Shown: piece after piece, positions 6,800 to 64,000 of the stretch | Numbering within the stretch: position 1 is the first letter of the stretch | How the letters are laid out: each line of letters begins with the position of its first letter | NCBI GenBank assembly: GCA_965208425.1 | Contig: OZ242335.1 | Span: 188,544-252,543, forward strand | Origin: Candidatus Poribacteria bacterium | GTDB taxonomy: Bacteria > Poribacteria > WGA-4E > PCPOR2b | Direction: 5' to 3' | Length of the DNA: 64,000 nt | Program-made: the position numbers and the translations under genes | Notes under the pieces: generated by a model | The model's input: the letters and a program-made list of their open reading frames with translations, nothing else | Databases searched by the model: none | Told to the model about the DNA's origin: nothing

Positions 6800-6813
6800 G
6801 CTTATCTTCACCG

Positions 6814-8690: not shown

Positions 8691-8724
8691 GTTTCACCTC
8701 TTTATGTGTGAACGAAGTACCGCT

Positions 8725-9860: not shown

Positions 9861-9959
9861 GTGTGCCTATACTATTGATGTCTGCTTATTTATCTAATTC
9901 ATCATAAATAGCCCTAAGTATATTTGTGTGTCTTAAAATTTCAAAGGAGAAATACAACT

Positions 9960-23371: not shown

Positions 23372-23462
23372 GTAAAAGGAAAGTGCAAAGCACGAAGAGA
23401 AACCGAGTTTTGCCGAAAAAACTCGGTTTCTTTGCACTAAATCTTAACATGAGCGTTTTAGG
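23372..23462. mobile_element. MITE family 2, short form (~90 bp)
   Basis: ctcatgtaaaaggaaagtgcaaagcacgaagagaaaccgagttttgccgaaaaaactcggtttctttgcactaaatcttaacatgagcg. Confidence 0.6.
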
Positions 23463-26400: not shown

Positions 26401-26664
26401 GCCTGCGTAGATAACATTTGGATCTGCATCTGCCACCGCGATAGCGCCTACCGCAGCACTATTGAAGAACTCGTCTGTGATGTTTTCCCAGTATGTTCCT
26501 GCGTCGTCAGTCTTCCAGACACCGCCAGCACACGCGCCGAAGTAAAAGACTGCCGGCTCTGTGGGATGTCCCGCTACCGCAACAACACGCCCACCCCGTG
26601 GTGGACCGATACAACGCCATTTGAGTGATTGAAATAAATTTGAATCTGATTGAGAATTGCTCAT
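23458..26664 (-). CDS. BNR/Asp-box (Sortilin/VPS10-like) repeat glycosyl-hydrolase-like protein
   Basis: Multiple S-x-D-G-G-x-T-W Asp-box repeats (STDGGKAW, SKDGGTTW, STDGGDTW, SDDGGETW, STDGGHTF...). I re-called the start at ATG 26664 (MSNSQSDSNLF...). The track ORF reads on into MITE1. Confidence 0.75.
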   Translation of the reverse strand: MSNSQSDSNLFQSLKWRCIGPPRGGRVVAVAGHPTEPAVFYFGACAGGVWKTDDAGTYWENITDEFFNSAAVGAIAVADADPNVIYAGTGETTIRLDVSYGDGVYKSTDGGKAWENVGLKETRHIGKIRIHPQNPDLVYVAALGHAFGPNEERGVFRSKDGGTTWENILFRSEKAGAVDLAMDPHNPRILYATIWETYRNFWELSSGGPDSSLYKSTDGGDTWEELTNKPGLPKGLIGKIGVASSPAQSDRVWAIVEAEKGGLHRSDDGGETWELLTDNRDLWHRPFYYCHIFADPQDPDTVYVLNLKMWKSTDGGHTFTEITTPHGDNHDLWIDSNNPRRMIEGNDGGACVSFNGGDSWTTIYNQLTSQFYRIDTDNRFPYRVYATQQDNSSICAPSASEYGGIHWVDCYPVGTGESGDIVVHPENPDIAYIGAIGSSPGGSGVLQRYDHHTRQIRLVNVWPEEYIGLGPKDLKYRFSWTFPIAFSPHNPGVLYVAGNIIFRSTDEGSSWEPISPDLTRNDVTKLGPSGGPITKDASGAEHYGTVYAFVESSHESGVFWAGSDDGLIHISRDEGQSWENITPPDLLEWSLISNIETSPHDPATAYVAVTRYKLDDYQPYLYKTDDYGQTWHIISGSFPEGEITRVIREDPVRSGLLYVGTETGIYVSLDDGANWYRLQNNLPVVPVYDLKIKDGDLVAGTHGRSFWILDDVTPLRHMSAEAAQASPHLFEPRATYRRWLQWGAGMFRSETGKNYLMGLGAAATFYLEKSPEGERTRRFLDAGEGPPQGVIVYYLLEDTSADSVELTFLDADGAEIKTFTTKPEDAEDDEADSDNKDDRYIPAEPGLNRFVWDMSYPDSEAVTEPPSGKQEAPPDKPNNGPLASPGTYQTQLKVGAQAQTQTFEICKDPRVTASQADFDAQFELWSQIRDKLSETHEAINRLRRIQRQANEWKKRADAGEDTNAEAICEAAEALQEKLKAIEGELIQTGADTIGDRLRLPTMLIGKLAGLTSVVAVADFAPPKQAYELFEELSSQIDAQLDQLKSVIEEDVAAFNNLISEANVPAVVT

Positions 26665-26734
26665 GCTCTGTTTTCCTTTATTGTTGGGTATGAGATTTTG
26701 TGGCGAACGCAGATCTGCGTTCCCTACTGTAGTG

Positions 26735-26822
26735 GATTTTAGAATTAATGAGACACTGCCAATCGGTGAGGTTGGAAACCTCACCTACCGGGGAGCGCAA
26801 GTGTCTATTTATTTTGAGCCTC
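26735..26822. mobile_element. MITE family 1, short form
   Basis: ttttagaattaatgagacactgccaatcggtgaggttggaaacctcacctaccggggagcgcaagtgtctatttatttt. Confidence 0.6.
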
Positions 26823-39041: not shown

Positions 39042-39317
39042 GGTTGTTGCTCCTTTCAAATTGAGAATGTGAAATTTTAGGCTGGAAACCGTCCGAAATC
39101 TGTAAGGACGCTTCCAAAACCAAGAGGAGATTGACAAATGAAAACACTGGAAACAACCCCAATGCTTTAGCGTTGGGTCAGATGGCGTAATTTTGATTGA
39201 TAGTGACATCAAAATATGGCATAATTCCTTTGTCCTTGTGGGAAAGTTCTACGCCACCGCCCGGTGGTGTCTCCCACACCTTTTAGAACAAGGTGTAAGG
39301 CCAAACAGGACACACCC

Positions 39318-40418
39318 ATGTTAAAAACTCACAAAATAGCCTTAGATACAAACAACGTCCAAGCGACACAATTCGCTCAACATTGCGGCTATGCTCGTGT
39401 TGCTTACAATCACGTTCTTGCTGATTTTAAGGCTGGTTTAGCCAATGACGAGTGGTATAGCCATATAGAGTTAAACAAACGTTTTAATTCTGTCAAGCGT
39501 GAGCAATATGAGTGGTGTGACGAGTTAAACCAACGTGCTGCTCACAATGCGATTTACTTCAACTTTCAGAATGCTGTTAAGCGTTGGCAGTCAGGTCAGG
39601 GTCGTTTTCCAAAGTTCAAGAAGCGTTCCAAAGGTCAAAGTTTCCAAGCGGATGCAGGTCGAGGCACAACTATTATCGAAGGACAGCGTATAAAACTACC
39701 CAAGATGGGTTGGGTTCGTATGTTCCAAACACTTCGACACCTCGGCACTATCGTCAAAGTTGTCATCTCAAAGACAGCTAACCGTTGGTTCGCTTCTATT
39801 ACTGTAGATACTTTCGATAACGATACTATTGTTGACAATCGCCATTTACCTGTTGTTGGTGTTGACGTAGGTATCAAGCACTTAGCTGTCACGTCCGAAG
39901 GTGTATATCACGAAAACCCCAAAGCCTTAAAGCGTTACCAGCGGAAGCTAAAACGGCTGCAACGTCAGTTAAGCCGTCGAAAGAAAGGGAGTCGGAATTG
40001 GCGTAAAACGAAAGCCAAGATTGCCAAGCTGCACTACCGAATCACCTGTATCCGACAAGATGCCCAACATAAGGCAACAACGGCTATCGTCAACGGTGCG
40101 AGTCGTATTGGGATGGAGTCGCTAAATGTTGCAGGTATGTTAAAAAACCACAGACTTGCAAAGGCATTATCGGACGCTTCGCTATCCAGTTTTCTCACGA
40201 TGCTTGCCTACAAATCAGAACGGATAGGTGTTAAAATTGTAGAGGCAGACACCTTCTACCCGTCGAGTCAGACGTGCTCGGCTTGTGGGGCAAAAGACAA
40301 AGCCCTGTCACTATCGGATAGGACGTACCATTGCAGTGATTGTGGTCATACACAAGACAGGGACCTTAACGCTGCAATTAACCTACGAAACGTCGCCATG
40401 GGACACACGGAGACTTAA
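39318..40418 (+). CDS. tnpB: TnpB (OrfB) RNA-guided endonuclease / IS605-family accessory protein
   Basis: RuvC-I VGVDVGIK, RuvC-II GMESLNV, zinc finger CSACG...CSDCGH, and RuvC-III DRDLNAAINL are all intact. Start at ATG 39318 (MLKTHKIALD) with an AGGA RBS. Confidence 0.85.
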   Translation: MLKTHKIALDTNNVQATQFAQHCGYARVAYNHVLADFKAGLANDEWYSHIELNKRFNSVKREQYEWCDELNQRAAHNAIYFNFQNAVKRWQSGQGRFPKFKKRSKGQSFQADAGRGTTIIEGQRIKLPKMGWVRMFQTLRHLGTIVKVVISKTANRWFASITVDTFDNDTIVDNRHLPVVGVDVGIKHLAVTSEGVYHENPKALKRYQRKLKRLQRQLSRRKKGSRNWRKTKAKIAKLHYRITCIRQDAQHKATTAIVNGASRIGMESLNVAGMLKNHRLAKALSDASLSSFLTMLAYKSERIGVKIVEADTFYPSSQTCSACGAKDKALSLSDRTYHCSDCGHTQDRDLNAAINLRNVAMGHTET

Positions 40419-41783: not shown

Positions 41784-43880
41784 TTGGGATTTCTTAATCC
41801 GATTTTCCTGTTGGGCATACTTGCGGCCGCTGTGCCGCTAATCATCCACCTTTGGAGACGTCATCAAGCGAAAACGGTGGATTTTAGCAGCCTGATGTTT
41901 CTCTTGGCCGCCTATCGACAAAATGTTCGACGCATTCAACTTAAGCATCTGCTAATTCTGCTTTTGCGAGTGTTGATTATCATACTGATTGCTCTCGCAC
42001 TCGCACGTCCCCTGCTTAAAAACCGATTTGCCTTCGCCGGTGGAAGAACAAAAACCAGCGTTGTCATCATTCTGGACAATTCTTATAGCATGGGGTATCA
42101 GGGAATTCAGGGAGGACGGTTTGAAGTCGCAAAAGGGATGGCACTTGAAATTGCTCAATCCCTCCGGCGTGGCGACAGTGCCTCCGTAATTTTAATGTCT
42201 GATATCCCTGATTCACTATTTCCCAAACTGACGAAAGATCTGAATCAGGTGAGGGAGGCGATTCGGCGTTCCCAGATTTCTTACCGCGCAACGTTGGTCC
42301 CGCCGAGCCTTGAAATGGCGCACGATATCCTTGAAGCGTCCAACGATCCGAACAAGGAGATTTATCTAATTTCTGACTTTAGTCGTAACGGCTGGAGGCA
42401 CTGGAATCGTGTGCCCAACCGATCTAGGGCAAGGATTTTTCTACTTCCTCTTGATGATGAAGTTACCGATAATATAAGCATTGAAGAAGTTCGAGCCTCT
42501 AACCAACTAATTGGTTTGGGGTTGCCCATTGAATTGGGGGTAGCAATAGGGGTTCATTCCGATGCACCTGTGGCTGACACAACACTGACGCTTTTTATCG
42601 ACGAGCAGAAACGGCGATCCATCAATCCTCGGGCAGGAGCGGGTGAATCGGTGAGATTGACGTTTACGCACCAATTTGAATCACCCGGTACGCACACCGG
42701 ATATCTGGAATTAACTGCGGATCGCCTGCCCATTGATAATCGTCGTTACTTCGTCCTTGATGCTTATGGCCAAATTCGTGTGCTTTGTGTCGGTGTTCAA
42801 ACGACGTACTTGGCGCTCGCATTAAACCCAGCAGTTCAGGCGCAGCCGAACACCGGTTCCTCTTTTTTACCTGCGACTGCTTCCCTAGACGCGTTAGAGG
42901 AACTAACGCTTGCAGAGTATGACATTCTGATTTTAGCAGATGTACCGATATTCTCAGCTCGCGTTCAGCAACAATTGCAAGCGTTCATGCGGGCAGGCAA
43001 AAGTGTCATCTACTTTGTGGGCGATGGCGTTGATACTGCTAGTTATAATGCGTTTGCCGATTGGTTGCCCGCAGATGTAGGCCAACCGATAACGTGGCAG
43101 CGGCCAGTAACCTTGTCAAATTACAAGGCAGATTCCCCGATTTTTGAGGTCTTTAAGGGAGAAGACTTTTCAGGACAATACGCGCCACAATTTTATCGTG
43201 GTCTGAAGTTGAAACCGTCTGAAGATGCAAAGATTGTTGCACAATTGAGCGATGGCACACCATTTCTCATCGAACGCCCTATTGGCCGAGGGATAGCACT
43301 ACTTTTTAATGTGTCTGCTGCTCAGTTGGATGCATCGAGTCTATTGGTCAATCAGAACTTTCTACCTTTGTTGCAACAAGCTGTGCTTTACACAAAGGCG
43401 AATCAATCTGCGCATCAAAGAAACTTAATTGTTGGCGAGCCTTACACAGCAAACTACCGGTGGAGTGGAGCAACGACTACACAGATAACGCGCTTGGGGG
43501 ATGCGACCCATTCGTCAGAGACGCTCTCACTTACCGAGGGAGGGGCGCTCACGTTTAGTGGAACAGATGCCCCCGGCATCTATAAAGTTGAGGGACAGAG
43601 TAGAGATACACTCCTGCAAGATTTTTTCGCTGTGAATGTTGATGCATCAGAATCGGAACTACAAGCCATCCCCATTGAGGAAGCTGTGGTGCGAATTGGG
43701 GCGCAGACAGAGGTTATTTCAGAATCAGAGGCTTTAGAACAGACGCTCAACACCTACCGGGTTGGAGTGGAAATCTGGAGCGAGTTGCTACTCATCGCTC
43801 TTATCTTGATGTTAATTGAAGGGATTCTATCCAATCGAGAAAGCGCAATTGCTGATGATTCTGTGCCAGGTCCCAACTAG
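41784..43880 (+). CDS. BatA-like membrane protein: N-terminal double-TM 'aerotolerance' domain + vWA domain + C-terminal TM
   Basis: N-terminus NPIFLLGILAAAVPLIIHLWRR (BatA_N pattern). MIDAS-type LDNSYSM. 698 aa. TTG start per the track. Confidence 0.7.
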   Translation: MGFLNPIFLLGILAAAVPLIIHLWRRHQAKTVDFSSLMFLLAAYRQNVRRIQLKHLLILLLRVLIIILIALALARPLLKNRFAFAGGRTKTSVVIILDNSYSMGYQGIQGGRFEVAKGMALEIAQSLRRGDSASVILMSDIPDSLFPKLTKDLNQVREAIRRSQISYRATLVPPSLEMAHDILEASNDPNKEIYLISDFSRNGWRHWNRVPNRSRARIFLLPLDDEVTDNISIEEVRASNQLIGLGLPIELGVAIGVHSDAPVADTTLTLFIDEQKRRSINPRAGAGESVRLTFTHQFESPGTHTGYLELTADRLPIDNRRYFVLDAYGQIRVLCVGVQTTYLALALNPAVQAQPNTGSSFLPATASLDALEELTLAEYDILILADVPIFSARVQQQLQAFMRAGKSVIYFVGDGVDTASYNAFADWLPADVGQPITWQRPVTLSNYKADSPIFEVFKGEDFSGQYAPQFYRGLKLKPSEDAKIVAQLSDGTPFLIERPIGRGIALLFNVSAAQLDASSLLVNQNFLPLLQQAVLYTKANQSAHQRNLIVGEPYTANYRWSGATTTQITRLGDATHSSETLSLTEGGALTFSGTDAPGIYKVEGQSRDTLLQDFFAVNVDASESELQAIPIEEAVVRIGAQTEVISESEALEQTLNTYRVGVEIWSELLLIALILMLIEGILSNRESAIADDSVPGPN

Positions 43881-43900
43881 TCGAGGATTCTCGATTTCGT

Positions 43901-43920
43901 AAGCGTTGGAACGCTTTTCA
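43901..43920 (+). terminator. candidate intrinsic terminator (aagcgt-tgga-acgctt followed by TTT)
   Basis: Short hairpin 20 nt after the stop at 43880. Weak. Confidence 0.3.
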
Positions 43921-43985
43921 GTCCCGATCTATCGGAGACGCAACGGAATCGGAGCCAGACCTGAATAATATCTCCCAATCTACCG

Positions 43986-45752
43986 ATGAAATGTCTATGC
44001 CCCCTTGCCCTTATCATTTTAATTCTTCTTACCCAGATATTACCCGCCGATGCGGCTCCAATCCGCAATATTATTGTCACAGGAAATGAAGCGTTCCCTA
44101 GCGAGAAAATTCTCAGCTTAATGCAATCGCAAGTTGGTGATGACTATGATCCCGATCTGCTTCGCCAAGATTTTGAATGGATTGCCGGTCATTACCAAAT
44201 ACACGGATTTCAATTCGCTCGAGTTGATCCAGAGCAGCTTGTAGCCCTAGAATTCACTGATGGTGTTTATCTCAGAATCTACATCGACGAGGGAAGGATT
44301 GGGCGAATTACAATAAAAGGAAATAGCCGCACCAAAACTGATGTAATCAGACAAGAGCTGCTTTTTGAAAGAGGCGATGTTTACATACAGGACGATGAGT
44401 TGGAAAGTGAACGTATCCTACGCCGAAAGCCGTATTTGGGAAGCGCGGAAATTCTTGCAACGCGGGACCCGGAAACCAATCTTATCTTAATAGAGGTCGA
44501 AGTCACAGACCTATGGACTTTTTTTCCTGCCTTAGATGTCCCTGCCTTCAGCAAAGATAAAACGGGTTTTTTAGTTGCACTGTCGGATTCAAATGTATTC
44601 GGTTCTGGGGACAGTGGTCGCATCCGTTACGAACAGATTCGTGAAGAAGGGGAAGATCCACGTCATCTTATCAGTGGTCTCTATAGGATATTCCGCCTGT
44701 TTGATTCACATTGGGAGTTCGATGGCGTGTATACCCAAAAACGGGAGGGGGTTTCATGGGACGCGAGTATAAAACGGCCCTTGTATTCGCTTGAGACCCG
44801 CTGGAGTGCGGAGTTTACTGCCGCCGAATCTGTAGATGAAGTCCGCTGGTATGAGCAAGGCGTAAAAACAGCTGTCTTTGAACGAAGCAGTCAATCGGAG
44901 TCCGGACAGATTATCCGTTCCTTTGGTGATCGTCGTCGACAGACACAGATTGCGCTCTGGATGGTTTCTGAGCGTGCACATTTCGATGAGATTGAGAGGT
45001 TGCCGTCTGCCACCGCTAGCTTTCAGGACAGAAACACAAAGATGGTTGGAGTCTCGCTCGGTCACAGAAAAGTCAACTTTATCCGCACACGTTTTCTCAA
45101 TAAGATGGGTCGTGTTGAAGATATCGGAGTCGGATATGGGTACGGTCTGTCAGTCGGTCGCGCTCACCCGTTTTACGGTGCCGATCGCAGAGAAACAAGG
45201 GTGAGTCTGTTTCTCAATGCCTCCCAAGCATATCGAGATCTACTTTTCGTTAATGGCCGCACCGGGGTCACAACCCGTTTTGTTGGGCATGAAGAAGAGG
45301 ATGCGGTGTTTCAGGCGAGCATCAAAGCAGTACGCAAAAATCTCTTTCTGCGTCAAACCCTTGCTGCACGGATTTCTGCAGAGATGCAATTCGGACTTGC
45401 GGGAGAACAGCAGGTGCTTCTCGGTGGAAACAGTGGATTGCGTGGATATGATCCCCGACAATTCAGTGGGACCAAAAGGATTCGCCTCAACCTCGAAAGC
45501 CGAATGATTTTCTGGGAGCACTCGTTAGTTGTGATTGGGTCCGCAATTTTCGCTGATGTCGGTTATATTTGGGAAGGGGATACCTCCGATGTAGGGATTC
45601 CCAAGCGGAGTGTAGGATTTGGGTTGCGGTTGGGTCTACCCAAACTGAGCGGATCGCGAGTCTATCGTGCTGATTTGGCGTACCCGTTGGATGGCCCGGA
45701 AAAGCCATCGCTTATACCGGTTTTCACCTACGCGATCGGGCACGCCTTTTAG
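43986..45752 (+). CDS. Omp85/BamA-TamA-family outer-membrane protein (POTRA + surface-antigen beta-barrel)
   Basis: Signal peptide. POTRA-like IKGNSRTKTDVIRQEL. C-terminal ...YAIGHAF with terminal Phe. Confidence 0.8.
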   Translation: MKCLCPLALIILILLTQILPADAAPIRNIIVTGNEAFPSEKILSLMQSQVGDDYDPDLLRQDFEWIAGHYQIHGFQFARVDPEQLVALEFTDGVYLRIYIDEGRIGRITIKGNSRTKTDVIRQELLFERGDVYIQDDELESERILRRKPYLGSAEILATRDPETNLILIEVEVTDLWTFFPALDVPAFSKDKTGFLVALSDSNVFGSGDSGRIRYEQIREEGEDPRHLISGLYRIFRLFDSHWEFDGVYTQKREGVSWDASIKRPLYSLETRWSAEFTAAESVDEVRWYEQGVKTAVFERSSQSESGQIIRSFGDRRRQTQIALWMVSERAHFDEIERLPSATASFQDRNTKMVGVSLGHRKVNFIRTRFLNKMGRVEDIGVGYGYGLSVGRAHPFYGADRRETRVSLFLNASQAYRDLLFVNGRTGVTTRFVGHEEEDAVFQASIKAVRKNLFLRQTLAARISAEMQFGLAGEQQVLLGGNSGLRGYDPRQFSGTKRIRLNLESRMIFWEHSLVVIGSAIFADVGYIWEGDTSDVGIPKRSVGFGLRLGLPKLSGSRVYRADLAYPLDGPEKPSLIPVFTYAIGHAF

Positions 45753-51971: not shown

Positions 51972-54941
51972 ATGATGTTTAAGTCAAAAATGATTGTGTC
52001 AATTTTCGCGGTGGTGTGGTTGATATATGGTTTCCAAAATATTAGTTATGGGCAGGAGGCAGTTACAGGTGAGATTACAGAGTGTTCGGGGACTCGGCGG
52101 GCCTGGCCATTAGAGACTTGGGTAGACGTAACAATACGAGGTACTGTCCAGGCTACGAGAAATGTGACGAGTTTACAGATTACCGGATCTGCCAACGGAA
52201 AGTCTGTTGGGATTGATTCGATGGGGCAACTTTCAGCAGGTCAATCCAGGAATTTTTCAATTACCGGGTTTATTGTTACCGATGAGAATACACTGGATTG
52301 TAGTGTTAGCCTTGAGTGGATTGAATTTACGCAGCCGGAACCTGATCCACCTGAAAACAACGAGCCGCCCGATGGAAATACAGGCTCACCGCCCAACAAC
52401 GGACAGTCCGGTGGAACGACATACACCTCTGGTGAAGTGATTCCAACGCTTCCTTCCGGGGGCTCCTCGGTAGTATTCCAAGGTGGATTCAGATCAAGAA
52501 ATGCGCGGTTCAGACTTTCTGGAGGGGTATACACTATTAATTTTGAGAATGGAGGGTTTATAGAAACGGGTGGAATTACATACACCTGCATCACTTCTGG
52601 TGGGTGCACAGTTAGAAATGGACGTGTGACTCAAGGAACGATTCAGGTTGGTGGCACGGCTCCACCGCCACCTGTAGAGGAATCGGACTTAGCAGTAGAC
52701 CAACCGACGGTGAGTAAAAGCACTTTAGATCCAGGTGAACGTTTTACGCTATCTACCACCGTCAGAAACAATGGTTCCGGCAGGGCGGGTTCGACGACGT
52801 TGCGCTATTATCGGTCCAGTGATAATAGGATTTCGACCGGTGATACAGAAGTCGGCACGGACAGCGTTAGCGCACTTAGTGCAAATCGGAGTAGTGATGA
52901 AAGTATCACGGTCACAGCCCCAACATCGCCAGGAACCTATTATTACGGTGCGTGTGTTGAATCGGTTTCGGATGAGAGTAACTCTAACAATAACTGCTCT
53001 GCTGCGGTGCGTATCACAGTAAAACAGTTAAAATCGGACTTAGTAGTGGATCGACCGACGGTCAGCAAAAGCACGTTAGCCCCCGGTGAGAACTTTACGC
53101 TGTCTGCCACCGTCAAGAACAATGGAGAAGCAAGGGCAGGTTCGACGACGTTACGCTATTATCGCTCGACCGATACCACGATTTCGACCGGTGATACAGA
53201 AGTCGGCACGGACAGCGTTAGCGCGCTTGATGCGAATGGGAGCAGTGCTCAGAGCATTACACTCACAGCCCCAACATCTCCTGGAACATACTATTACGGT
53301 GCGTGTGTTGAATCGGTTTCAGATGAGAGTAACTCTAACAATAACTGCTCTGATGCGGTAAGCGTCACAGTGAATCAGCCAACGCTAAGTGCCTCAACCC
53401 CGCCACGATTAACAGAGGCGGTGCTTGATAGCAGTGAAGTGACACTGACGATGACAGATGCCACTTACGACCAATCCCTGTCCACAATCAGCAACGCCAT
53501 AACGGTATCCGGTATTGTAGGTGTTACGGTTGGTACGGTCAGGCGGGTAAACGACACGGAGGTTACAGTCACACTTGCCTTCGACGGAACAGATTTTGAC
53601 ACCGATGCGACCCTTACCTTCAGTGTGGGTGCAGATGCTATAGCAAACTACGATGGCTCCGCCCTAACAGCACAAGTCCCCGTCACCGCAATCAAAGGAT
53701 TTGATTTTGATTTGTCTGTGCCGGCGGGCATCAGCATGATTCATGTGCCTTTGAAGGTAACAAAGGTTGACGGGGTAGCCAAGACGATTGAATCCATCTC
53801 CGACCTCTACGCCGCGCTCGGTGGGGACGACGCTGTCATTTTTCTTATGACCTATGACTCCCAACAAGGTTGGCTCGGCTATTGGGGTACTTCGGATACA
53901 GGCACCGCCGCCGATAGAACTTTGACTGATGACATGGGGATTTATGCCCGGCTGATTGTCCCGGTTTCGGTTCAACTCACCGGCGAGACGCTGGGGACTA
54001 TAGGCAGCGGGACTATCACCTTAAATCAAGGACTGAACCTTGTGGGGCTCCCCTTGCGAGACTCAAGGATAACCCGTGTAAGTGACCTGTTCACGCTCGA
54101 TGGGATTCGTGGCAACGTCTTTGGGATTTCGCTCGCTGATGATGGAGAGTTTAAGACTGTCGGACAGGCAGGGGATCCGGGCGATATTCCCGTTACTGGT
54201 GGACAAAGTTTTATCCTGACCGCTCAGAGATCGGCAACGGTCACTATTTCCGGTGAAGCATGGACTAACGTTTCAGAGACAGCTGCCGCCCCATCGTTAT
54301 CCCTGAAGGGCATTGAGGTGGAGGATACGACGCCTGTTTTAGCGTTGAGGGGGACGATTGTTGATGAACAAAGGGACTTAAACCAGTCAGGCTTCCGTGT
54401 GACTGTCAAGAACCTTTCAACCGGCAGATCTATCACCGGCATGACCAAAGCGGAAGGTGATGTGTATAAGCTCACCGTCGTTGACATAGAAATGGGTCAA
54501 GCCGCTGCGATTGGCGATGTCCTTGAAATCTCCGCTCAATCTCCCAATCCGTTAATCGGTGTAGAGCCGTTACGTTATACCTTGACTGCGGAAGATGTCA
54601 AGCGGAGCCTCATTCAGTTGCCAGAACTGGTTGCCTATGAGATACCCGCAGAGACCCAACTGTTGCCCAACTACCCCAACCCGTTCAATCCGGAAACATG
54701 GATACCGTATCGGTTGGCAGAGGACGCTTTCGTGACATTGACCATCTATGATCAGACCGGTCAAGTTGTCCGCTCCCTTGACGTGGGATACCAGACTGCG
54801 GCGGTCTACGAAAGTCGATCCAAGGCAATCTATTGGGACGGTAGAAACGAGTTTGGTGAAACCGTGGCAAGTGGAATCTATTTCTACCATCTGTCGGCGG
54901 ACGATTATTCTGCGACACGGAAGATGCTAATTTTGAAGTAG
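51972..54941 (+). CDS. large secreted protein with two tandem CARDB domains and a T9SS C-terminal sorting domain
   Basis: AAGGAG SD. Signal peptide. Two ~105-aa near-identical CARDB-like repeats (..PTVSKSTL.PGE.FTLS.TV.NNG..RAGSTTLRYYRS.D..ISTGDTEVGTDSVSAL...ESNSNNNCS). C-terminal NYPNPFNPETWIPY...GIYFYHL tail. Confidence 0.8.
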   Translation: MMFKSKMIVSIFAVVWLIYGFQNISYGQEAVTGEITECSGTRRAWPLETWVDVTIRGTVQATRNVTSLQITGSANGKSVGIDSMGQLSAGQSRNFSITGFIVTDENTLDCSVSLEWIEFTQPEPDPPENNEPPDGNTGSPPNNGQSGGTTYTSGEVIPTLPSGGSSVVFQGGFRSRNARFRLSGGVYTINFENGGFIETGGITYTCITSGGCTVRNGRVTQGTIQVGGTAPPPPVEESDLAVDQPTVSKSTLDPGERFTLSTTVRNNGSGRAGSTTLRYYRSSDNRISTGDTEVGTDSVSALSANRSSDESITVTAPTSPGTYYYGACVESVSDESNSNNNCSAAVRITVKQLKSDLVVDRPTVSKSTLAPGENFTLSATVKNNGEARAGSTTLRYYRSTDTTISTGDTEVGTDSVSALDANGSSAQSITLTAPTSPGTYYYGACVESVSDESNSNNNCSDAVSVTVNQPTLSASTPPRLTEAVLDSSEVTLTMTDATYDQSLSTISNAITVSGIVGVTVGTVRRVNDTEVTVTLAFDGTDFDTDATLTFSVGADAIANYDGSALTAQVPVTAIKGFDFDLSVPAGISMIHVPLKVTKVDGVAKTIESISDLYAALGGDDAVIFLMTYDSQQGWLGYWGTSDTGTAADRTLTDDMGIYARLIVPVSVQLTGETLGTIGSGTITLNQGLNLVGLPLRDSRITRVSDLFTLDGIRGNVFGISLADDGEFKTVGQAGDPGDIPVTGGQSFILTAQRSATVTISGEAWTNVSETAAAPSLSLKGIEVEDTTPVLALRGTIVDEQRDLNQSGFRVTVKNLSTGRSITGMTKAEGDVYKLTVVDIEMGQAAAIGDVLEISAQSPNPLIGVEPLRYTLTAEDVKRSLIQLPELVAYEIPAETQLLPNYPNPFNPETWIPYRLAEDAFVTLTIYDQTGQVVRSLDVGYQTAAVYESRSKAIYWDGRNEFGETVASGIYFYHLSADDYSATRKMLILK

Positions 54942-55336
54942 GTCATACAGTTTGATCTATAGCCAGAACAAATAGCATATAGGAGTTACACCCTTTAGTT
55001 TGTAGTAGCGCGTTCATTGCGCGTTCTTCCCTCCCCCCGATTCCGATTCTTCCCGATGGATCCCCGATATGATCGGGACAGGTTCCGACCTGTCGGAATG
55101 CTCGGAACGGCACGGAACGAAGAAGCGTGAACTCCGCTTTGCGGAGAAGTTCCCGTGACCGGGACGGGAGATAGAGGGGGAACGGGCGATAAATCGCCCT
55201 ACTACAAACCTATGGATTTAATTATAGTTGCCCGATTCATTGGACTTTGAGCGTTCAAGTGCATAAGTCCTATCAAGTGTCAAAGTTACCAGCTAACCGA
55301 AAACGGATTTATCCGTTCAAAACCGAGGAGGATGTT

Positions 55337-57217
55337 ATGAATCTCATGAAAAAGAGGCTGTTTTTTGGCTTCAAATTCGTTTTAATCTTTGCTCTGTTTC
55401 TATCAAACAGCCATGGCACATATATTCCCCAAACTGTTCTCGAAGGGCATACAAATTCGGTCAATAGTGTATCGTTCAGTCCTGATGGTAGTATGCTCGC
55501 CAGTGGAAGTAGTGACAAAAGGATTCGTCTTTGGAATGCCGCTACAGGCGTGCTCCTCCACACTCTCACGGGACATGAGGGCGGTGTCAAGAGCGTAACG
55601 TTCAGTCCTGATGGTAGTATGCTTGTCAGTGGGGGTGATGACAACACGATTCGTCTTTGGGATGTCGCCACCCGTAAGGAACTGAAGACCCTTGAGGGGC
55701 ATACGACTTCGGTCAGGAGCGTAGCGTTCAGTCCTGATGGTAGTATGCTTGCCAGTGGGAGTGATGACAACACGATTCGTCTATGGGATGTTGCTACGGG
55801 TGAGGAACCCAAGATACTGAGGGGAGAATGGTGGAATGATCGTATTGAATCCGTAGCGTTCAGTCCTGATGGTAGTATGCTTGTCAGTGGGGGTGCTGAC
55901 AATACGATTCGTCTGTGGGATGTCGCTACGGGTAAGGAACTAATGACCCTCACGGGGCATAGGTCTCTTGTCTATAGTGTAGCGTTCAGTCCTGATGGTA
56001 GTATGCTTGCCAGTGGGAGTGCTGACAATACGATTCGTCTGTGGGATGTTAGCACCGGCAAGGGACTGAATACCCTTGAACTATCTAGTATTTGGCAGGG
56101 TTATAGTGTCTATAGTGTAACGTTCAGTCCTGATGGTAGTATGCTTGCCAGTGGGAGTGATGACAACACGATTCGTCTTTGGGAGCTACCGTCCACCCAT
56201 GTTAGCATTACGCCTTCCCCGGTGGAGTCACCAGCAGTGGGTGAGCAGTTGGTCATCAACGTTAGTATTAAAGGAGGGAAAAACGTGCGAGGCTATGCGG
56301 TCAACGTAGGGTATAATCCGTTCACACTCCGCTATGTTTCCCACACCCGCGGCGATTATCTGCCCGGCAACGTATTTCCCGGGCCAGAGATACTTCCGCC
56401 AGACGAGATGTTTAATAGAAATGATGCTTTCGTGATTTTTACTATGGTTTCACCGGATGGGGTTAAAAGTGGTGACGGCACCCTTGCCACTATCACTTTT
56501 GAGGTTGTTGCTCGAAGGGCATCTACGCTTGAGTTATACGTAGCACTCTCTGATAGTGATGGCGAACGGTTGGGGCATTGGTCGAAAGATGGAAGCGTGA
56601 TTGAACCACCGTGGGATGTCAATGGGGACGGTTTCGTGAACCTCTTGGATTTGTCGATTGTTGCCTCCCGGTTTGGGGAGGGTGGGGACAATCGAGCTGA
56701 TGTTAATCGGGATGGGGTTGTTAATATTACGGACCTGATTTTGGTCGCCAGCGGAATGTATGGCGAGCTAGCCGCGCCCGCCGCCCATTTACAGACGGAG
56801 CCAACGCTTGCCCCTGCAGCGGTGAAAGGGTGGCTCGCTCAAGCACAGGGGTTAGATCTCACGGATGCAAGGTTACACAGGGGCGTTGCCTTCCTCGAAC
56901 AGCTGCTCGCGGTGTTGACCCCGAAAGAGACGCAACTGTTGGCAAACTATCCGAATCCGTTTAATCCTGAGACGTGGATACCTTACACGCTATCCGAGTA
57001 CAGCGACATAAGCATCCGGATCTACGATAGTAAAGGACAGGCAATCCGACAGCTATCACTCGGAATGAAACCAGCCGGTGTATACATTGACAAGGATTCC
57101 GCCGCGTATTGGGACGGAACAACGGAGACAGGGGAAAAGGTGTCAAGCGGTATTTACTTTTACTCGCTCTCCACTGGTTCAGCAATGTATACCAAGAAAA
57201 TGATCGTCGTCAAATAG
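55337..57217 (+). CDS. secreted WD40-repeat / cohesin-like / dockerin-repeat protein with a T9SS C-terminal sorting domain
   Basis: GAGGAGG SD before ATG 55337. Six units of the form VNSVSFSPDGSMLASGS.D.TIRLWD. Cohesin-like GDGTLATITFEVVA. Dockerin pair DVNGDGFVNLLDL / DVNRDGVVNITDL. NYPNPFNPETWIPY tail. Confidence 0.8.
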   Translation: MNLMKKRLFFGFKFVLIFALFLSNSHGTYIPQTVLEGHTNSVNSVSFSPDGSMLASGSSDKRIRLWNAATGVLLHTLTGHEGGVKSVTFSPDGSMLVSGGDDNTIRLWDVATRKELKTLEGHTTSVRSVAFSPDGSMLASGSDDNTIRLWDVATGEEPKILRGEWWNDRIESVAFSPDGSMLVSGGADNTIRLWDVATGKELMTLTGHRSLVYSVAFSPDGSMLASGSADNTIRLWDVSTGKGLNTLELSSIWQGYSVYSVTFSPDGSMLASGSDDNTIRLWELPSTHVSITPSPVESPAVGEQLVINVSIKGGKNVRGYAVNVGYNPFTLRYVSHTRGDYLPGNVFPGPEILPPDEMFNRNDAFVIFTMVSPDGVKSGDGTLATITFEVVARRASTLELYVALSDSDGERLGHWSKDGSVIEPPWDVNGDGFVNLLDLSIVASRFGEGGDNRADVNRDGVVNITDLILVASGMYGELAAPAAHLQTEPTLAPAAVKGWLAQAQGLDLTDARLHRGVAFLEQLLAVLTPKETQLLANYPNPFNPETWIPYTLSEYSDISIRIYDSKGQAIRQLSLGMKPAGVYIDKDSAAYWDGTTETGEKVSSGIYFYSLSTGSAMYTKKMIVVK

Positions 57218-57409: not shown

Positions 57410-58318
57410 TCATTGTTTGCCTCCTGTCGGTTTGGAACTGGCTAGGGTGGTGGTATCTTTGCAGCGTTGTGATTCGGTTGCTAAGTTAGCGTTGATGTCC
57501 TTGAGTAGATGTTGGGGTATCAGGTCAAGATATTGAGAGATGACGCGTTTGGAGAGCCGGGTAATCTGCGAGATTTTGTCAATATCGTCAGTGGCGGTGC
57601 GAACGGTCTTGACAATTTCATAATCGCGAATGTATCGGTCAACGGCTTCTTTGGAGTGTTTGGTCTTTGCAGCAATAGTGGGGGTGAGATGTCCTTGTAG
57701 ATAGAGGGTAACAATCTCTTTCTTATGGGTAATGGCACCCGATAAGTCATGGATATTGCCGCGTGTAGGCAAGAGTTTACCACTCGTTTTTTGCCATTCA
57801 TTGACATAATCGCTGACCACAGCATCACAGACATTGAGCAATACAGCCAAGTCGAGTTGTGTCAATAATGCGCCTTGGTCATAGGCTTGATAACACCAAC
57901 GGACCAATCGATTAATTCGTAGTTGACGAGCGGTCAATCCATTGCGAAAGGATTCAATATCCTCATCAGCGAGGTAGGTCAGAATAACCGGCTTCATACG
58001 GGTTTTAGCGATGGACTTTCCCTTTTGTGGATATTCATCAATAGGCACAGCCATCCAGACGAGTTGTCCATAACTGAGCATTCGCTCATTAGGTATCTGC
58101 TCCCCTGTGGCAAGTTTCTCAAGGGGTAAGGTAATCACAAAATAGTCCTCAACGGTTTTGACAATGTCATCGACAATCGCAGCGGCAGTGACTTCGCCTT
58201 TGTCGTACCCGTAAGAATTGATAAAGCGATGAATCAGCAACTGGCGCAGTGACTTGTCATTGATGCGTCTGAATTTCTTCTCGTTGACTTCGGTTCGGGT
58301 CAATGTTTTGCCCATCAA
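57410..58318 (-). CDS. double-HTH DNA-binding protein, paralogue B (resembles DUF1670-type proteins; assignment tentative)
   Basis: 302 aa. The conserved core shared with its neighbour, ...QAYDQGALLTQLDLAVLL...HKKEIVTLYLQGHLTPTIAAKTKHSKEAVDRYIRDYE, is predicted from the sequence pattern to form two helix-turn-helix units. Confidence 0.65.
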   Translation of the reverse strand: MMGKTLTRTEVNEKKFRRINDKSLRQLLIHRFINSYGYDKGEVTAAAIVDDIVKTVEDYFVITLPLEKLATGEQIPNERMLSYGQLVWMAVPIDEYPQKGKSIAKTRMKPVILTYLADEDIESFRNGLTARQLRINRLVRWCYQAYDQGALLTQLDLAVLLNVCDAVVSDYVNEWQKTSGKLLPTRGNIHDLSGAITHKKEIVTLYLQGHLTPTIAAKTKHSKEAVDRYIRDYEIVKTVRTATDDIDKISQITRLSKRVISQYLDLIPQHLLKDINANLATESQRCKDTTTLASSKPTGGKQ

Positions 58319-59124
58319 TTGTCCCCCTTTTTCGCATCAACTGGTTCCGGGTGAAGCAGTTGAGTCATTCGCTCGGTTTGTTGATACTCATTGTATAGCA
58401 ACAGATACTCCCGAATCAGCCGGTCCGATAGATGGCTTATCAGCCGTATCTGTCCCTTGGCAAAGCCTTGACTATGGAGGCTGGCTACCTGTGTAAAGTC
58501 ACTCAGGTATCGCCAGATCGCTCGCTCGGTGTGGTTAGTCTTTTGCTCTATTTTGGTGAACTGATACCCTTTGAAGTAGAGTTCGAGAATCTGAGTCTTA
58601 TGAGAAACGCCAGGGCCCATGTCGTGTTTGGCACCCCGGGTCATCACAAAATAACCGTCCTGTTTCAACTGGCGAATATCGCGTTTGACCGTGGCTGGAC
58701 TGGTCGTTAAGAGTACCGCTAAATCTTCATAGCTGAGTAGGGCATCTTGGTCATAGGCTTGTTTGGTTAAGCGGAGGATCCGATGCCGTCTCAGACCTGA
58801 AAGTCCGTAATTGGCTAACACCTCAACGTCGGCTTGCATATCATTGAGAGTGAGTCGGCAGGATACCTTTTTCGCTAAGGCGATGTGTTTACCGGCTGGT
58901 TCGTCGGCTGCGACTACCTCGTAGCAGATTTGACCCGATGTCAGTTCAATTTCGGCGTGTTGGGCAAAGTAGGAAGCAATCTGTTTGTAGTAGGCTTCGG
59001 CAATGATAGGCATTAGATTAAAGTCTGATGATATTTTCTGAATAATCGCTGCACGGGCAGTCTTGGATTGTAGGCGGTTGACACCGTAGGCTCTATCGGT
59101 TTGTGGCTTCATATAGACCTCCAT
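58315..59124 (-). CDS. double-HTH DNA-binding protein, paralogue A (DUF1670-like, tentative); stop overlaps the start of paralogue B (ATGA)
   Basis: 269 aa. ...QAYDQDALLSYEDLAVLLTTSPATVKRDIRQLKQDGYFV...HKTQILELYFKGYQFTKIEQKTNHTERAIWRYLSDF. Translational-coupling overlap with the downstream gene. Confidence 0.65.
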   Translation of the reverse strand: MEVYMKPQTDRAYGVNRLQSKTARAAIIQKISSDFNLMPIIAEAYYKQIASYFAQHAEIELTSGQICYEVVAADEPAGKHIALAKKVSCRLTLNDMQADVEVLANYGLSGLRRHRILRLTKQAYDQDALLSYEDLAVLLTTSPATVKRDIRQLKQDGYFVMTRGAKHDMGPGVSHKTQILELYFKGYQFTKIEQKTNHTERAIWRYLSDFTQVASLHSQGFAKGQIRLISHLSDRLIREYLLLYNEYQQTERMTQLLHPEPVDAKKGDN

Positions 59125-61047: not shown

Positions 61048-64000
61048 ATTATAAAAACGTTAGTTGTAAATCGGAAACGCATCACATTCATTGTGTTGAT
61101 GATGTTATCTCTATTCGCTCCACAAATATGGGGAATCGCGGACGCCGACGGGCACCTCATTGAGGGTCCCTGGCTCTGGATGATTGTTCCGTCGGCTGAT
61201 GTTTCACCGAAGATAGAATTCCCCCAAGAAGAGATAGAAGTCCCCCAAGGACTGATGCCCTCCCTGTGGGGAGAGATTAAGACTGATGTTTCGACAGAAA
61301 CAGATTCCCCAGAGATATATTTTCTAGATATAGATTCCCTTGCTGCTGCGAGTAATAGTACCGTTAGGGAATTCTCTGTTGCCCAAGGCAGTGCGATCAC
61401 TGCTGGGGATACCGTTGGATTGTCAAGATGGACAAGTAGTATTATTCCCTACCAAAAGAAAGAATGCGAAGAGTTCAAGAGCGTTAGTTGGTTTTTTATT
61501 TTTGGTGGCGGCACTGAAACTAAAACCGAATGTTGGAATAATAGTCTCAACGCGGTGGTCGATTTACTTGGATTGGGGAGAGATGCTAAGAAAGGACATA
61601 CCGCGTATGCGTTGATTTACCTCATCTCGCCCCGCGAGCAAATCAGCACCATGGGTGTTCAGAGTGGGGACGCACTCCACGTATGGCTCAATGGCGATGT
61701 GGTTTACGGACAGGCTGCGACTCACTTAGATTGCCGAAAGGTAGACATATTCGGTGCGCCCGATCACAGGACCTGCATCCCCGATCCACGGGATTGGGAG
61801 CGGAAACCGCACTATTTTCCCGTGATGCTTAAAGCCGGTCCCAACCTGCTATTGGTGAAAGTCAAACAGCACGGAACGTATTGGGATCTGTGGGTTGACC
61901 TTGATGCAGATTTCAGCACGACAACTGGCGCCCTTTCAATGATTCAAGCTTCGTCTCCGTTGGGGGAGTTGACGTTGGATGGTAACGTTATCACCTTGAG
62001 ACTAAATAGTAGATCTTTTGAGCCAGATATTACCATCCTCGAAGATGCGCTGACGGTATCGGGCATCCCCGGTGTAACGATACAACCGTCTAGTGTCCAA
62101 CGAATCAGCGACATAGAAGTAATGTTTACCCTAAGTTTTGACCACACCGACATCGACGGAGATGCTGAGCTCACCTTCGCCGTCGGTGACGGTGCGATAA
62201 CAAACTATCAAGGTGCTGCGTACAGCATAGAAAGCCGTGTTGCCGGCATTGAAGAATCAGTTGACGTTTCAGTTACATCTCCGTTGGGGGAGTTGACGTT
62301 GGATGGGAGCGTTATCACCCTGACGTTAAGTGGCAGAACTCTTGAGGCAGATATTTCCACAATCCGCGATGCGCTGACGGTATCGGGCATCCCCGGTGTA
62401 ACGATACAACCGTCTAGCGTCCAACGAATCAGCGAGACAGAAGTAATGTTTACCCTAAGTTTTGACCACACCGACATCGACGGAGATGTTCAGCTCACCT
62501 TCGCCGTCGGTGACGGTGCGATAACAAACTATCAAGGTGCTGGATTGCGCAGCAGCAAGCGTGTTGAGTCCACTGAAGAATCAGTTGACGTTTCAGTTGC
62601 ATCTCCGTTGGGGGAGTTGACGTTGGATGGGAGCGTTATCACCCTGACGTTAAGTGGCAGAGTTTTTGAGCCGGATATTTCCACAATCCGCGATGCGCTG
62701 ACAGTATCGGGCATCCCCGGTGTAACGATACAACCGTCGAGCGTCCAACGAATCAGCGAGACAGAAGTAACGGTTACGCTTGATTTCGACAGGACCCCAT
62801 TTATTGATGTTCCCCCGCCGCTGACTGTCAGCGTGGGCACCGGTGCGATCTCAAACTATATGGGGGAGGCCGTTACCGTAGAAGTTTCTATCGTATCCTC
62901 CAGAGACGAACAGACTAGCATTTATTGGACAGATCCCCTAGATAATACAATCTACAACGGCAACTTAGACGGTCCAAACGTCGAAGCCTTCGTCGCAGGA
63001 TTGGGGAATCCAACCGGTATCGCCTTAGACGCGGCGGATAGCAAGATGTACTGGACAGACGCGGGGACGAAAAAAATCCAACGTGCGAACTTGAACGGTT
63101 CAAACGTCGAAGACCTAGTTGCCCAAGGATTAAGCGGTCCAAGAAGCATCGCCTTAGATGTCGCAGCGGGTAAGATGTACTGGACAGACGCGGGGACGAA
63201 AAAAATCCAACGTGCGAACTTGGACGGTTCAAACGTCGAAGACCTAGTTGCCCAAGGGTTGGGGCGTCCATTCGGTATCGCGTTAGATATAACAGGCGGC
63301 CAGATGTATTGGACAGACAACGGGACAGACAAGATTCAGCGATCGGATTTGGACGGTTCAAACGTCGAAGATCTCGTCACAGGATTGGGAAATCCATTGG
63401 GCATCGCGTTAGATATAGCAGGCGGCAAGATGTATTGGACAGACAACGGGACAGACAAGATTCAGCGATCGGATTTGGACGGTTCAAACGTCGAAGATCT
63501 CGTCACAGGATTGGGAAATCCATTGGGCATCGCGTTAGATATAGCAGGCGGCAAGATATATTGGACAGACGCGGGGACGAAAAAAATCCAACGTGCGAAC
63601 TTGGACGGTTCAAACGTCAAAGATCTCTTCACAGAATTAGTCTCTCCAGCCGGCATTGCCATTGTAATAGATTCTTCCTCCCCAGTGACACAGGAGGCTG
63701 TGGACCATGACCCAGTGGCACAGGAGGTTGTGGACCATGATGCCATTGTTGATGTCCAAGAGTTCGTGCTCTTGCCAAACTACCCCAATCCGTTCAATCC
63801 AGAGACGTGGATACCGTATCACTTGGCAACGGAGGCAGATGTTACGTTGACTATCTACGACACAAGTGGACAGGTCGTTCGGCTGTTGAAGCTCGGACAT
63901 CAAGCTGCGGGACGGTATCAGAGCCGAAGTCGTGCTGCTTATTGGGATGGCAGAAACCAGTTTGGAGAGGCGGTAGCAAGCGGTGTTTATTTCTATCGCC
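61048..64000 (+). CDS. very large secreted protein: 3 x ~105-aa tandem repeats + six-blade YWTD (LDL-receptor class B) beta-propeller + T9SS C-terminal sorting domain; 3' end beyond window
   Basis: Open frame from 60973 to the window end. AAGGAG at 61039-61044. There is no canonical in-frame start before GTG 61093 / ATG 61099, but a proper signal peptide (IIKTLVVNRKRITFIVLMMLSLFAPQIWG/IADA) exists only if translation starts at ATT 61048 or ATA 61051. YWTD units (K.YWTD.GT.KIQRA.LDGSNVEDLV). LLPNYPNPFNPETWIPY...GVYFY tail truncated at 64000. Confidence 0.75.
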   Translation, partial: MIKTLVVNRKRITFIVLMMLSLFAPQIWGIADADGHLIEGPWLWMIVPSADVSPKIEFPQEEIEVPQGLMPSLWGEIKTDVSTETDSPEIYFLDIDSLAAASNSTVREFSVAQGSAITAGDTVGLSRWTSSIIPYQKKECEEFKSVSWFFIFGGGTETKTECWNNSLNAVVDLLGLGRDAKKGHTAYALIYLISPREQISTMGVQSGDALHVWLNGDVVYGQAATHLDCRKVDIFGAPDHRTCIPDPRDWERKPHYFPVMLKAGPNLLLVKVKQHGTYWDLWVDLDADFSTTTGALSMIQASSPLGELTLDGNVITLRLNSRSFEPDITILEDALTVSGIPGVTIQPSSVQRISDIEVMFTLSFDHTDIDGDAELTFAVGDGAITNYQGAAYSIESRVAGIEESVDVSVTSPLGELTLDGSVITLTLSGRTLEADISTIRDALTVSGIPGVTIQPSSVQRISETEVMFTLSFDHTDIDGDVQLTFAVGDGAITNYQGAGLRSSKRVESTEESVDVSVASPLGELTLDGSVITLTLSGRVFEPDISTIRDALTVSGIPGVTIQPSSVQRISETEVTVTLDFDRTPFIDVPPPLTVSVGTGAISNYMGEAVTVEVSIVSSRDEQTSIYWTDPLDNTIYNGNLDGPNVEAFVAGLGNPTGIALDAADSKMYWTDAGTKKIQRANLNGSNVEDLVAQGLSGPRSIALDVAAGKMYWTDAGTKKIQRANLDGSNVEDLVAQGLGRPFGIALDITGGQMYWTDNGTDKIQRSDLDGSNVEDLVTGLGNPLGIALDIAGGKMYWTDNGTDKIQRSDLDGSNVEDLVTGLGNPLGIALDIAGGKIYWTDAGTKKIQRANLDGSNVKDLFTELVSPAGIAIVIDSSSPVTQEAVDHDPVAQEVVDHDAIVDVQEFVLLPNYPNPFNPETWIPYHLATEADVTLTIYDTSGQVVRLLKLGHQAAGRYQSRSRAAYWDGRNQFGEAVASGVYFYR

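Follow-up and report, generated by a model that had tools for sequence, protein, structure and literature searches.

A poribacterial WD40 protein with cohesin, dockerin and a sorting-type C-terminal domain, a candidate adaptor in a cell-surface network of eukaryote-like proteins

A 64-kb stretch of DNA from a Candidatus Poribacteria bacterium (contig OZ242335.1; the whole stretch of 64,000 nucleotides is referred to here as the window) contains a complete gene whose protein product combines a WD40 beta-propeller, a cohesin, a dockerin, a conserved two-helix hairpin and a sorting-type C-terminal domain (CTD) on one polypeptide (Table 1). That WD40, cohesin, dockerin and sorting-type tail stand on a single chain is confirmed, and chance is excluded as an explanation. 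Behind the WD40 region, these modules make up a cassette that recurs with other eukaryote-like domains in front of it, and the taxonomic spread of the sequences suggests that this cassette is close to specific for Candidatus Poribacteria. We propose, with a probability of roughly 55%, that the protein acts as a cohesin-dockerin adaptor that binds other proteins in trans and so takes its place in a surface network of eukaryote-like proteins.

The open reading frame (ORF) is already open from a TTG codon at 55247, and the ATG at 55337 was preferred as the start because a GGAGGA Shine-Dalgarno sequence lies 6 nt upstream of it. An earlier interpretation made from the letters of the window alone (the sequence-only reading) had given the gene the same span, and both peptides that it quoted are found in the translation. 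An artefact or pseudogene was considered and ruled out by the intact ORF, the Shine-Dalgarno sequence and the end-to-end conservation among homologues. An identical 626-aa protein is on record in public data (P0059, on a 6.8-Mb contig), and more than 100 proteins match at least 93% of the length of the target, some of them named by NCBI as 'cohesin domain-containing protein [Candidatus Poribacteria bacterium]'. The target is an ordinary member of its family, already present in databases and automatically annotated. At its N terminus, a putative Sec-type signal peptide was recognized by eye, and homologues appear to keep the n-h-c layout and a cleavage-like, AxA-like site (SFA/ED, TFA/QD); AlphaFold2 (AF2) models this segment as a helix at residues 4-22 with a low predicted local distance difference test score (pLDDT).

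The cohesin and the dockerin are the modules on which the proposal turns. The cohesin exceeds the PF00963 gathering score of 24.1 bits (32.3-34.2 bits), and the dockerin scores 37.6 bits against Dockerin_1 (PF00404), for which the cut-off is 22.9. By sequence, the family profile matches solved cohesins with an E-value of 1e-11 and solved dockerins with an E-value of 1e-10, and the best matches of the cohesin in both sequence and fold are true cohesins, some of which were solved in complex with dockerins. The module has the fold of a cohesin, an elongated beta-sandwich (jelly-roll) of ~140 residues. The region that the sequence-only reading had singled out for structure prediction (56200-56800) falls within residues 290-626, for which an AF2 model drawing on 57 homologues reached a pLDDT of 87.9 and a predicted TM-score (pTM) of 0.63 for the four-module fragment, with high confidence across the cohesin-dockerin junction. 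Four elements are folded in this model: a beta-sandwich, two dockerin helices that each follow a DxNxDG loop, a two-helix hairpin and a terminal beta-sandwich. With both hidden Markov model (HMM) scores above curated cut-offs, and with the structural matches in agreement, the cohesin and two-segment dockerin named in the sequence-only reading are borne out.

The two calcium-binding loops of the dockerin are spaced 28 residues apart, which we take to be shorter than in typical type I dockerins. Each loop of the target has the calcium ligands D1, N3, D5 and D12, which in both loops are 99-100% conserved across 214 unique dockerins of the family. Variability in these dockerins is focused at positions 4, 11 and 18-19 and is found also at positions 7, 14 and 15; positions 11, 14 and 18 are among those that contact the cohesin in solved complexes. 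Ligands held invariant beside variable recognition positions form the pattern expected from purifying selection on a working dockerin. Agreement between the two dockerin segments of one protein was examined because a dual-binding mode would predict it, and a modest excess was found (at position 11, 0.29 observed against 0.13 expected), the two segments of the target itself being unlike each other (LL against IT). The cohesin and dockerin of the target are separated by only ~3 residues (PPW), and the linker is ~3-8 residues long across the family.

Two variants of the cohesin were observed among related proteins. An extra single F-hand (e.g. KWAIEDVNGDGVVDTKDLVWVNQG) lies inside the cohesin of P0003, P0004, P0016, P0030 and the gene at 3137-5089 of locus L005, in the loop where the target has ILPPDEMFNRNDAF, and amounts to a dockerin-like calcium loop within a cohesin. 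A 'mini-cohesin' of ~100 aa that lacks HMM positions ~58-79 is present in P0007, P0018, P0065 and ~38 of 123 full-length matches; in some it is the sole cohesin, in others it is inserted as a second one after the full cohesin and ahead of the dockerin.

Beyond the dockerin, an Ala/Pro linker of low AF2 confidence leads into the hairpin, an element of ~40 aa with invariant W, G, L and P residues and the consensus ..VQxWLxxARxLxxTDxxxQRGIxxLEQLLAxLTPKET in family alignment A4. The hairpin holds the same position between dockerin and tail in nearly all cassette proteins. A profile of it found nothing significant in Pfam or among PDB sequences and, when run against an index of 5.8 billion proteins, returned just five short fragments that were uninformative. 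The CTD that follows begins with an invariant LLxNYPNPFNPETWIPY and scores 33.1 bits against FlgD_ig and 30.9 bits against Por_Secre_tail, both with a cut-off of 27, as well as 34.9 bits against the NCBIfam model TIGR04183 for the T9SS (type IX secretion system) type A sorting domain, with a cut-off of 23. By sequence and by its immunoglobulin (Ig)-like sandwich fold it is a member of the TIGR04183/PF18962 family, so that the secretion tail of the sequence-only reading is indeed present as a sorting-type domain.

The lineage of the cassette was traced by running a profile of the contiguous cohesin-dockerin unit against one genome per species for 185,579 species. The best 80 loci include 78 titled Candidatus or uncultured Poribacteria, the other two being titled 'uncultured bacterium'. 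When 1.84 billion cluster representatives were searched exhaustively with HMMER, the same unit gave 679 clusters (50% identity) at E<=1e-30. Our own HMMs of the four C-terminal modules, made from alignment A3, were then run on the full-length matches and on all ORFs of 83 related loci. The complete order cohesin-dockerin-hairpin-tail was found in 61 of the 123 full-length matches and in 74 of the best 144 profile matches, and a second, shorter cohesin in ~38 of the 123. Among the ORFs of the 83 loci, 26 carry cohesin-dockerin-hairpin-tail and 32 carry dockerin-hairpin-tail without a cohesin. Dockerin-less proteins with four to eight cohesins account for 7 of the best 144 profile matches. One of these (P0187) consists of a signal peptide, WD40, five cohesins and the CTD, its cohesins being 41-42% identical to that of the target; another (P0189), on a 4.7-Mb contig, has five cohesins with Big_1 domains and the CTD, and adjoins a gene of 3060 aa that has a FlgD_ig tail and six or more cohesins. 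Across the scaffoldin-like proteins (P0187 and a pair at locus L084), cohesins are 34-42% identical to that of the target. The L084 pair (positions 1-10227) consists of adjacent giant genes of 3060 aa and 2408 aa on a 4.7-Mb contig, each with at least five cohesins interspersed with Big_1 domains and with a FlgD_ig tail.

Three classes of protein share the same CTD: those with a dockerin only, those with cohesin and dockerin, and those with five or more cohesins and no dockerin. Read from their sequences and judged across the lineage as a whole, these classes would form a complete cellulosome-like hierarchy of scaffoldin, adaptor and client, minus the glycoside hydrolases and carbohydrate-binding modules. 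The passengers found ahead of the cassette are of binding and adhesion types rather than polysaccharide enzymes, and include WD40, which is the commonest, leucine-rich repeats (LRR), cadherin, Big_9, lamin-tail (LTD), low-density lipoprotein (LDL)-receptor-B and Ig-like repeats, together with metzincin-like domains; cassette genes commonly stand in tandem arrays of two to four.

The mechanism that we propose would proceed in four steps. A Sec signal peptide would carry the protein over the inner membrane, and the T9SS-type/FlgD-Ig CTD would guide it onto the outer membrane or through it. The calcium-binding dockerin would then plug into the cohesin of another molecule, either an anchored multi-cohesin scaffoldin or another cohesin-dockerin protein, and the cohesin of the target would capture the dockerin of a further family member. 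The protein would thus serve as an adaptor, joining a non-covalent network and enlarging it at the same time, and would show its six-repeat WD40 propeller toward the sponge host environment, where it may take part in contact with the host. If the CTD were cut off on export, as it is in T9SS cargo, the dockerin would come to lie near the new C terminus, as in cellulosomal enzymes, and could then retain the released protein on anchored scaffoldins.

Binding between different chains was weighed against a self-contained module, in which the dockerin pairs with its own chain's cohesin or only with that of identical chains, as a homodimer or homopolymer. Beneath the WD40 head, such a module would form a stiff stalk or a homotypic array that assembles itself, with no bridge to other proteins. 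The constant, direct adjacency of cohesin and dockerin and the confidence of the AF2 model across their junction (pTM 0.63) are both what such a module would show, and in Amy4 of Ruminococcus bromii a cohesin does bind the dockerin of its own chain (PMC4611034). Covariation, calculated as average-product-corrected mutual information over 82 cassette sequences (effective number 59), points the same way, in that dockerin positions 11, 18 and 22 of segment 2 and 11 of segment 1 covary with cohesin columns more strongly than entropy-matched columns of the hairpin or tail (Mann-Whitney p = 3e-7). This signal decays along the chain, from dockerin to hairpin to tail, as simple linkage predicts, and the effective sample is small. 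Judging from solved complexes, a linker of ~3-8 residues, and of ~3 in the target, would be too short for the canonical mode of binding in cis, which argues for binding in trans. The dockerin-only paralogues and the dockerin-less paralogues with at least five cohesins make sense only with binding between different proteins, and for these reasons we consider the self-contained module unlikely.

A second alternative is that no pairing takes place, and that the cohesin-like and dockerin-like modules serve as spacers or stabilizers, or bind ligands of the host or matrix, and hold the propeller off the outer membrane. Many dockerins outside cellulosomes that have no cohesin partner are suspected of such a spacer role. 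Modules of both kinds are also widespread outside cellulosomes with unknown roles, according to the account of Peer et al. 2009 given in PMC9012536, and pairing in the present family is itself read from sequence. The invariance of the calcium ligands beside variation at the recognition positions, and the identity of the best matches as true cohesins, including ones solved with dockerins, speak against this alternative. Both module types moreover co-occur in one lineage in three complementary architectures that are typical of working systems, and we regard the absence of pairing as quite unlikely. The last alternative, a degradative complex like a cellulosome or amylosome that organizes the breakdown of polysaccharide or protein with the WD40 protein as an accessory, is very improbable. 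In its favor, a metzincin-like HExxHxxGxxHD motif does occur in some cassette proteins (L007, L058, L050), sulfatases and related genes are abundant in the window, and such a complex has been proposed for Ca. Stygibacter (PMC8542988). Against it, WD40, LRR, cadherin and Ig-like repeats dominate among the passengers, the sulfatases of the window carry no dockerin, and neither the target nor any cassette protein whose passenger was inspected or run against Pfam showed a glycoside hydrolase, a carbohydrate-binding module or another carbohydrate-active domain. Identity as a cellulosome was rejected on the same result, and the description 'cellulosome-like, non-clostridial' given in the sequence-only reading is apt for the architecture of the protein.

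For the adaptor proposal itself, several observations count on the other side. The sequence-only reading had suggested that the protein could bridge others at the cell surface, for which the dockerin-only and multi-cohesin proteins with the same tail now offer candidate partners in the lineage, but no partner cohesin or dockerin was found in the 64-kb window with regular expressions or with our own HMMs, the cohesin, dockerin and hairpin of the target being the sole copies there. Binding of cohesin to dockerin is deduced from sequence and architecture, and linkage explains the covariation equally well. The multi-cohesin proteins were assigned to the lineage by the CTD type that they share, and one weaker multi-cohesin match (P0265, named by JGI 'gliding motility-associated-like') may come from elsewhere. 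Each family member also has a CTD of its own, and the purpose of extra links is obscure if all are anchored independently. Finally, the phylum is reported to lack the structural genes of the Por/T9SS system (PMC3909097), which leaves the export step without known machinery.

This last point bears on the 'T9SS-exported context' of the sequence-only reading. The HMM scores and the fold of the CTD do match those of T9SS cargo, but the status of T9SS cargo also requires the machinery, and export by this system is therefore unproven. Poribacteria are a phylum of sponge symbionts outside the PVC (Planctomycetes-Verrucomicrobia-Chlamydiae) and FCB (Fibrobacteres-Chlorobi-Bacteroidetes) groups. Poribacterial WD40 genes were found to carry the Por-type sorting domain (TIGR04183) in single-cell genomes in which no Por structural genes were found, and the secretion route was left open (Kamke et al. 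2014, PMC3909097). Among the ~30 ORFs of the window that were scanned, no T9SS component (SprA/Sov, PorV, PorU, PorZ, GldK-N) was found.

The closest architectural relatives of the proposed system are the adaptor and anchoring scaffoldins of cellulosomes (Acetivibrio cellulolyticus ScaA/ScaB, Clostridium thermocellum CipA/OlpA-C), in which cohesin and dockerin likewise stand on one polypeptide, anchored multi-cohesin proteins, adaptors and dockerin clients form a hierarchy, and the dockerin has two F-hands; the cohesin of the target matches theirs best in fold and profile. The poribacterial proteins differ in belonging to a Gram-negative candidate phylum, in carrying a T9SS-type/FlgD-Ig CTD instead of SLH (S-layer homology) domains or a sortase signal, and in having WD40, LRR, cadherin and LDL-receptor-B passengers in place of glycoside hydrolases and carbohydrate-binding modules. 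They also differ in the single cohesin of the target, the ~3-residue linker, the loops 28 residues apart and the extra conserved hairpin. Amy4 of the R. bromii amylosome resembles the target in having a functional head followed by cohesin and dockerin on the same chain, and its cohesin binds its own dockerin as well as those of other proteins to give multimers and hetero-complexes (PMC4611034). By analogy, Amy4 is the closest experimentally tested counterpart of the mechanism that we propose, although it is a Firmicute GH13 amylase attached through a sortase-anchored scaffoldin, whereas the present head is non-catalytic WD40 and every member has a CTD.

Use of these modules outside plant cell wall degradation has precedents in Archaeoglobus fulgidus (2xdh), in NagJ/NanJ of Clostridium perfringens and in anaerobic methanotrophic (ANME) archaea, whose genomes encode dockerin and multi-cohesin proteins proposed to organize the cell surface (PMC9012536). 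In structure comparisons, 2xdh and the cohesins of C. perfringens rank near the top for the target cohesin. Lineage, anchoring and passengers differ in these systems, and a fixed cassette of hairpin and CTD was not found described for them. Nearer in setting is Ca. Stygibacter of the Cloacimonadota (PMC8542988), another Gram-negative candidate phylum, with a cohesin-repeat scaffoldin that has a conserved C-terminal domain for surface attachment and with dockerin partners. Its dockerin proteins are hydrolases and peptidases and its scaffoldin has carbohydrate-binding modules, whereas here eukaryote-like repeat proteins each have their own CTD, and cohesin and dockerin are fused. The eukaryote-like TIGR04183 proteins described by Kamke et al. 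2014 (PMC3909097) share the phylum, the combination of WD40 with a Por-type tail and the question of secretion, and the words 'cohesin' and 'dockerin' do not occur in that paper.

It follows that non-cellulosomal modules, chains with both cohesin and dockerin, a CTD-anchored scaffold (as proposed for Ca. Stygibacter) and poribacterial WD40 proteins with a Por-type tail were already known. No description of cohesin-dockerin in Poribacteria was found in the searchable literature, to which Peer et al. 2009 and Kamke et al. 2013 did not belong, nor was one found there of the fixed, hairpin-bearing cassette, of its organizing of eukaryote-like proteins or of the multi-cohesin scaffoldins beside it.

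The head of the target consists of six WD40 repeats, in agreement with the six blades of the sequence-only reading: PF00400 matches in six stretches (278 bits), and a FSPDGSML motif occurs six times in a tandem array with a period of 126 nt and 5.7 copies. AF2 models the region as 24-25 strands with a pLDDT mostly above 90. The top Foldseek match is the prokaryotic WD40 structure 5yzv (46-47% identical), and the TM-score of the model against seven-bladed structures is only ~0.7. The closest homologues carry seven or eight repeats (alignment A3, columns 365-413), the nearest of all (P0083, 664 aa, ~65% identical) having seven, one more than the target. A clean gap of one repeat separates the two, with a degenerate junction in the target (NTLELSSIWQGYSVYSV, window 56090-56140, residues ~250-268), and sequence comparison indicates that the target copy has lost one repeat relative to P0083. 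The six-repeat array may represent a true six-bladed propeller, a recent in-frame deletion of a repeat or a collapse in assembly. The GH dipeptide is gone from repeat 4 of the target (RGEWWNDRIESV). Promoter-like matches on the minus strand within the repeats were dismissed as by-products of the repeat sequence with no meaning.

Table 1. Features of the target gene and of its neighbors in the window
Feature	Position (nt)	Strand	Basis
WD40-cohesin-dockerin-hairpin-CTD gene, complete, 626 aa	55337..57217	+	ORF and translation; stop codon 57215-57217
Putative Sec-type signal peptide, residues 1-27 (MNLMKKR, hydrophobic core, SHG/TY)	55337..55417	+	By eye; AF2
WD40 beta-propeller, six repeats, residues 33-292	55433..56212	+	PF00400 278 bits, six stretches; AF2
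Cohesin module, residues 288-425	56198..56611	+	PF00963 32.3-34.2 bits
Dockerin, residues 426-476, two calcium-binding F-hand loops, each followed by a helix	56612..56764	+	PF00404; AF2 helices
Dockerin loop 1, DVNGDGFVNLLD	56615-56650	+	DxNxDGxxxxxD pattern
Dockerin loop 2, DVNRDGVVNITD	56699-56734	+	DxNxDGxxxxxD pattern
Conserved two-helix hairpin, residues 492-531, APAAVKGWLAQAQGLDLTDARLHRGVAFLEQLLAVLTPKE	56810..56929	+	AF2 helices, pLDDT ~86-92; low-confidence linkers on either side
C-terminal sorting-type domain, residues 532-626, LLANYPNPFNPETWIPY...KKMIVVK, Ig-like beta-sandwich	56930..57214	+	HMMs; AF2
Upstream neighbor, 989-aa secreted protein, two CARDB domains and the same CTD	51972..54941	+	Pfam, NCBIfam; own tail HMM 164 bits
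Downstream neighbor, large secreted protein running off the window end	~61051-61099 (ORF from 60973) to 64000	+	Translation; Ldl_recept_b E 7.8e-51, FlgD_ig, tail HMM
DUF1670 tandem pair, 4-nt overlap, one with a helix-turn-helix (HTH) match, tail-to-tail with the target	57410-58318, 58315-59124	-	

The target is flanked by two genes that share its CTD, both without cohesin or dockerin. In the upstream neighbor, a tandem duplication of 351 nt (52681-53359, 84% identical) gave rise to the pair of CARDB domains, and the segment ahead of the tail (RYTLTAEDVKRSLIQLPELVAYEIPAETQLL) is very similar to its counterpart in P0189, one of the multi-cohesin proteins, a similarity of sequence that suggests a second, dockerin-free kind of C-terminal cassette in these two proteins. 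Besides an N-terminal domain and the CTD in common with the target, the downstream neighbor has five LDL-receptor class B (YWTD) repeats and three Ig-like repeats, and belongs to the eukaryote-like LDL-receptor-B type highlighted by Kamke et al. 2014 (PMC3909097). Its N-terminal 'GPWLWMIVP...' domain recurs in cassette proteins of loci L011, L024, L030 and L031, and its Ig-like repeats, of ~108 aa each, are 90% identical in DNA (61954-62777).

The DUF1670 pair beside the target has counterparts, 80-85% identical at the protein level, in loci of two further Poribacteria species (L050, 4817-6471; L026, 6910-8564). In L050 the pair stands directly after a metzincin-dockerin-hairpin-CTD gene, and in L026 it stands ~2 kb after a cohesin-cohesin-dockerin gene. 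The first 113 nt past the stop codon are 74% identical between the target and the L050 gene despite unrelated N-terminal parts. Either the block is conserved and its passengers have been exchanged, or a mobile element has inserted repeatedly beside CTD genes. The intergenic region of 395 nt upstream of the target (54942-55336) is GC-rich with many short direct and inverted repeats (cggaacg and ccgat motifs); no copy of it was found elsewhere in the window or in 84 related loci, and a promoter, a regulatory RNA and a remnant are candidates for its nature.

The gene content of the wider window, with sulfatases, an FGE-sulfatase, PhyH, Sortilin/BNR, LDL-receptor class B and many GFO/IDH/MocA oxidoreductases, matches Poribacteria as described by Kamke et al. 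2014 (PMC3909097). Surface or eukaryote-like genes (23458-26784 on the minus strand, 18345-19319 and 41784-45752 on the plus strand) include a Sortilin-Vps10/BNR protein of 1108 aa, a PD40 propeller, BatA/VWA and a POTRA/Omp85 outer-membrane protein. A gene of the TnpB/OrfB_IS605 type (39264-40418, plus strand; OrfB_IS605, Cas12f1-like TNB and HTH_OrfB_IS605) was also seen, and an adjacent TnpA was not noticed.

No genomic signature of sponge symbionts is better known than their eukaryote-like repeat proteins, and a large cohesin-dockerin system for their display in a major sponge-symbiont phylum is apparently undescribed. If the adaptor proposal is true, the family would represent a large, non-degradative cohesin-dockerin system of hundreds of clusters in a Gram-negative phylum, with T9SS-like anchoring or export and a new hairpin element. 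For secretion biology, the family points to export by way of a CTD in a phylum from which no T9SS genes are known, and sharpens the question of the secretion route left open by Kamke et al. 2014 (PMC3909097). A wider and more tentative proposal, which we think doubtful at present, is that a phylum-specific cassette exports dozens of eukaryote-like proteins per genome, plugged onto multi-cohesin scaffoldins as a reconfigurable coat for host recognition or evasion; such a surface-assembly system of the phylum's own would mean that, outside the FCB group, T9SS-type CTDs are read by a novel pathway of export through the outer membrane. On the adaptor proposal, the eukaryote-like proteins of these symbionts would be shown not singly but joined by cohesin-dockerin links, which would provide a testable handle on the contact between symbiont and host.

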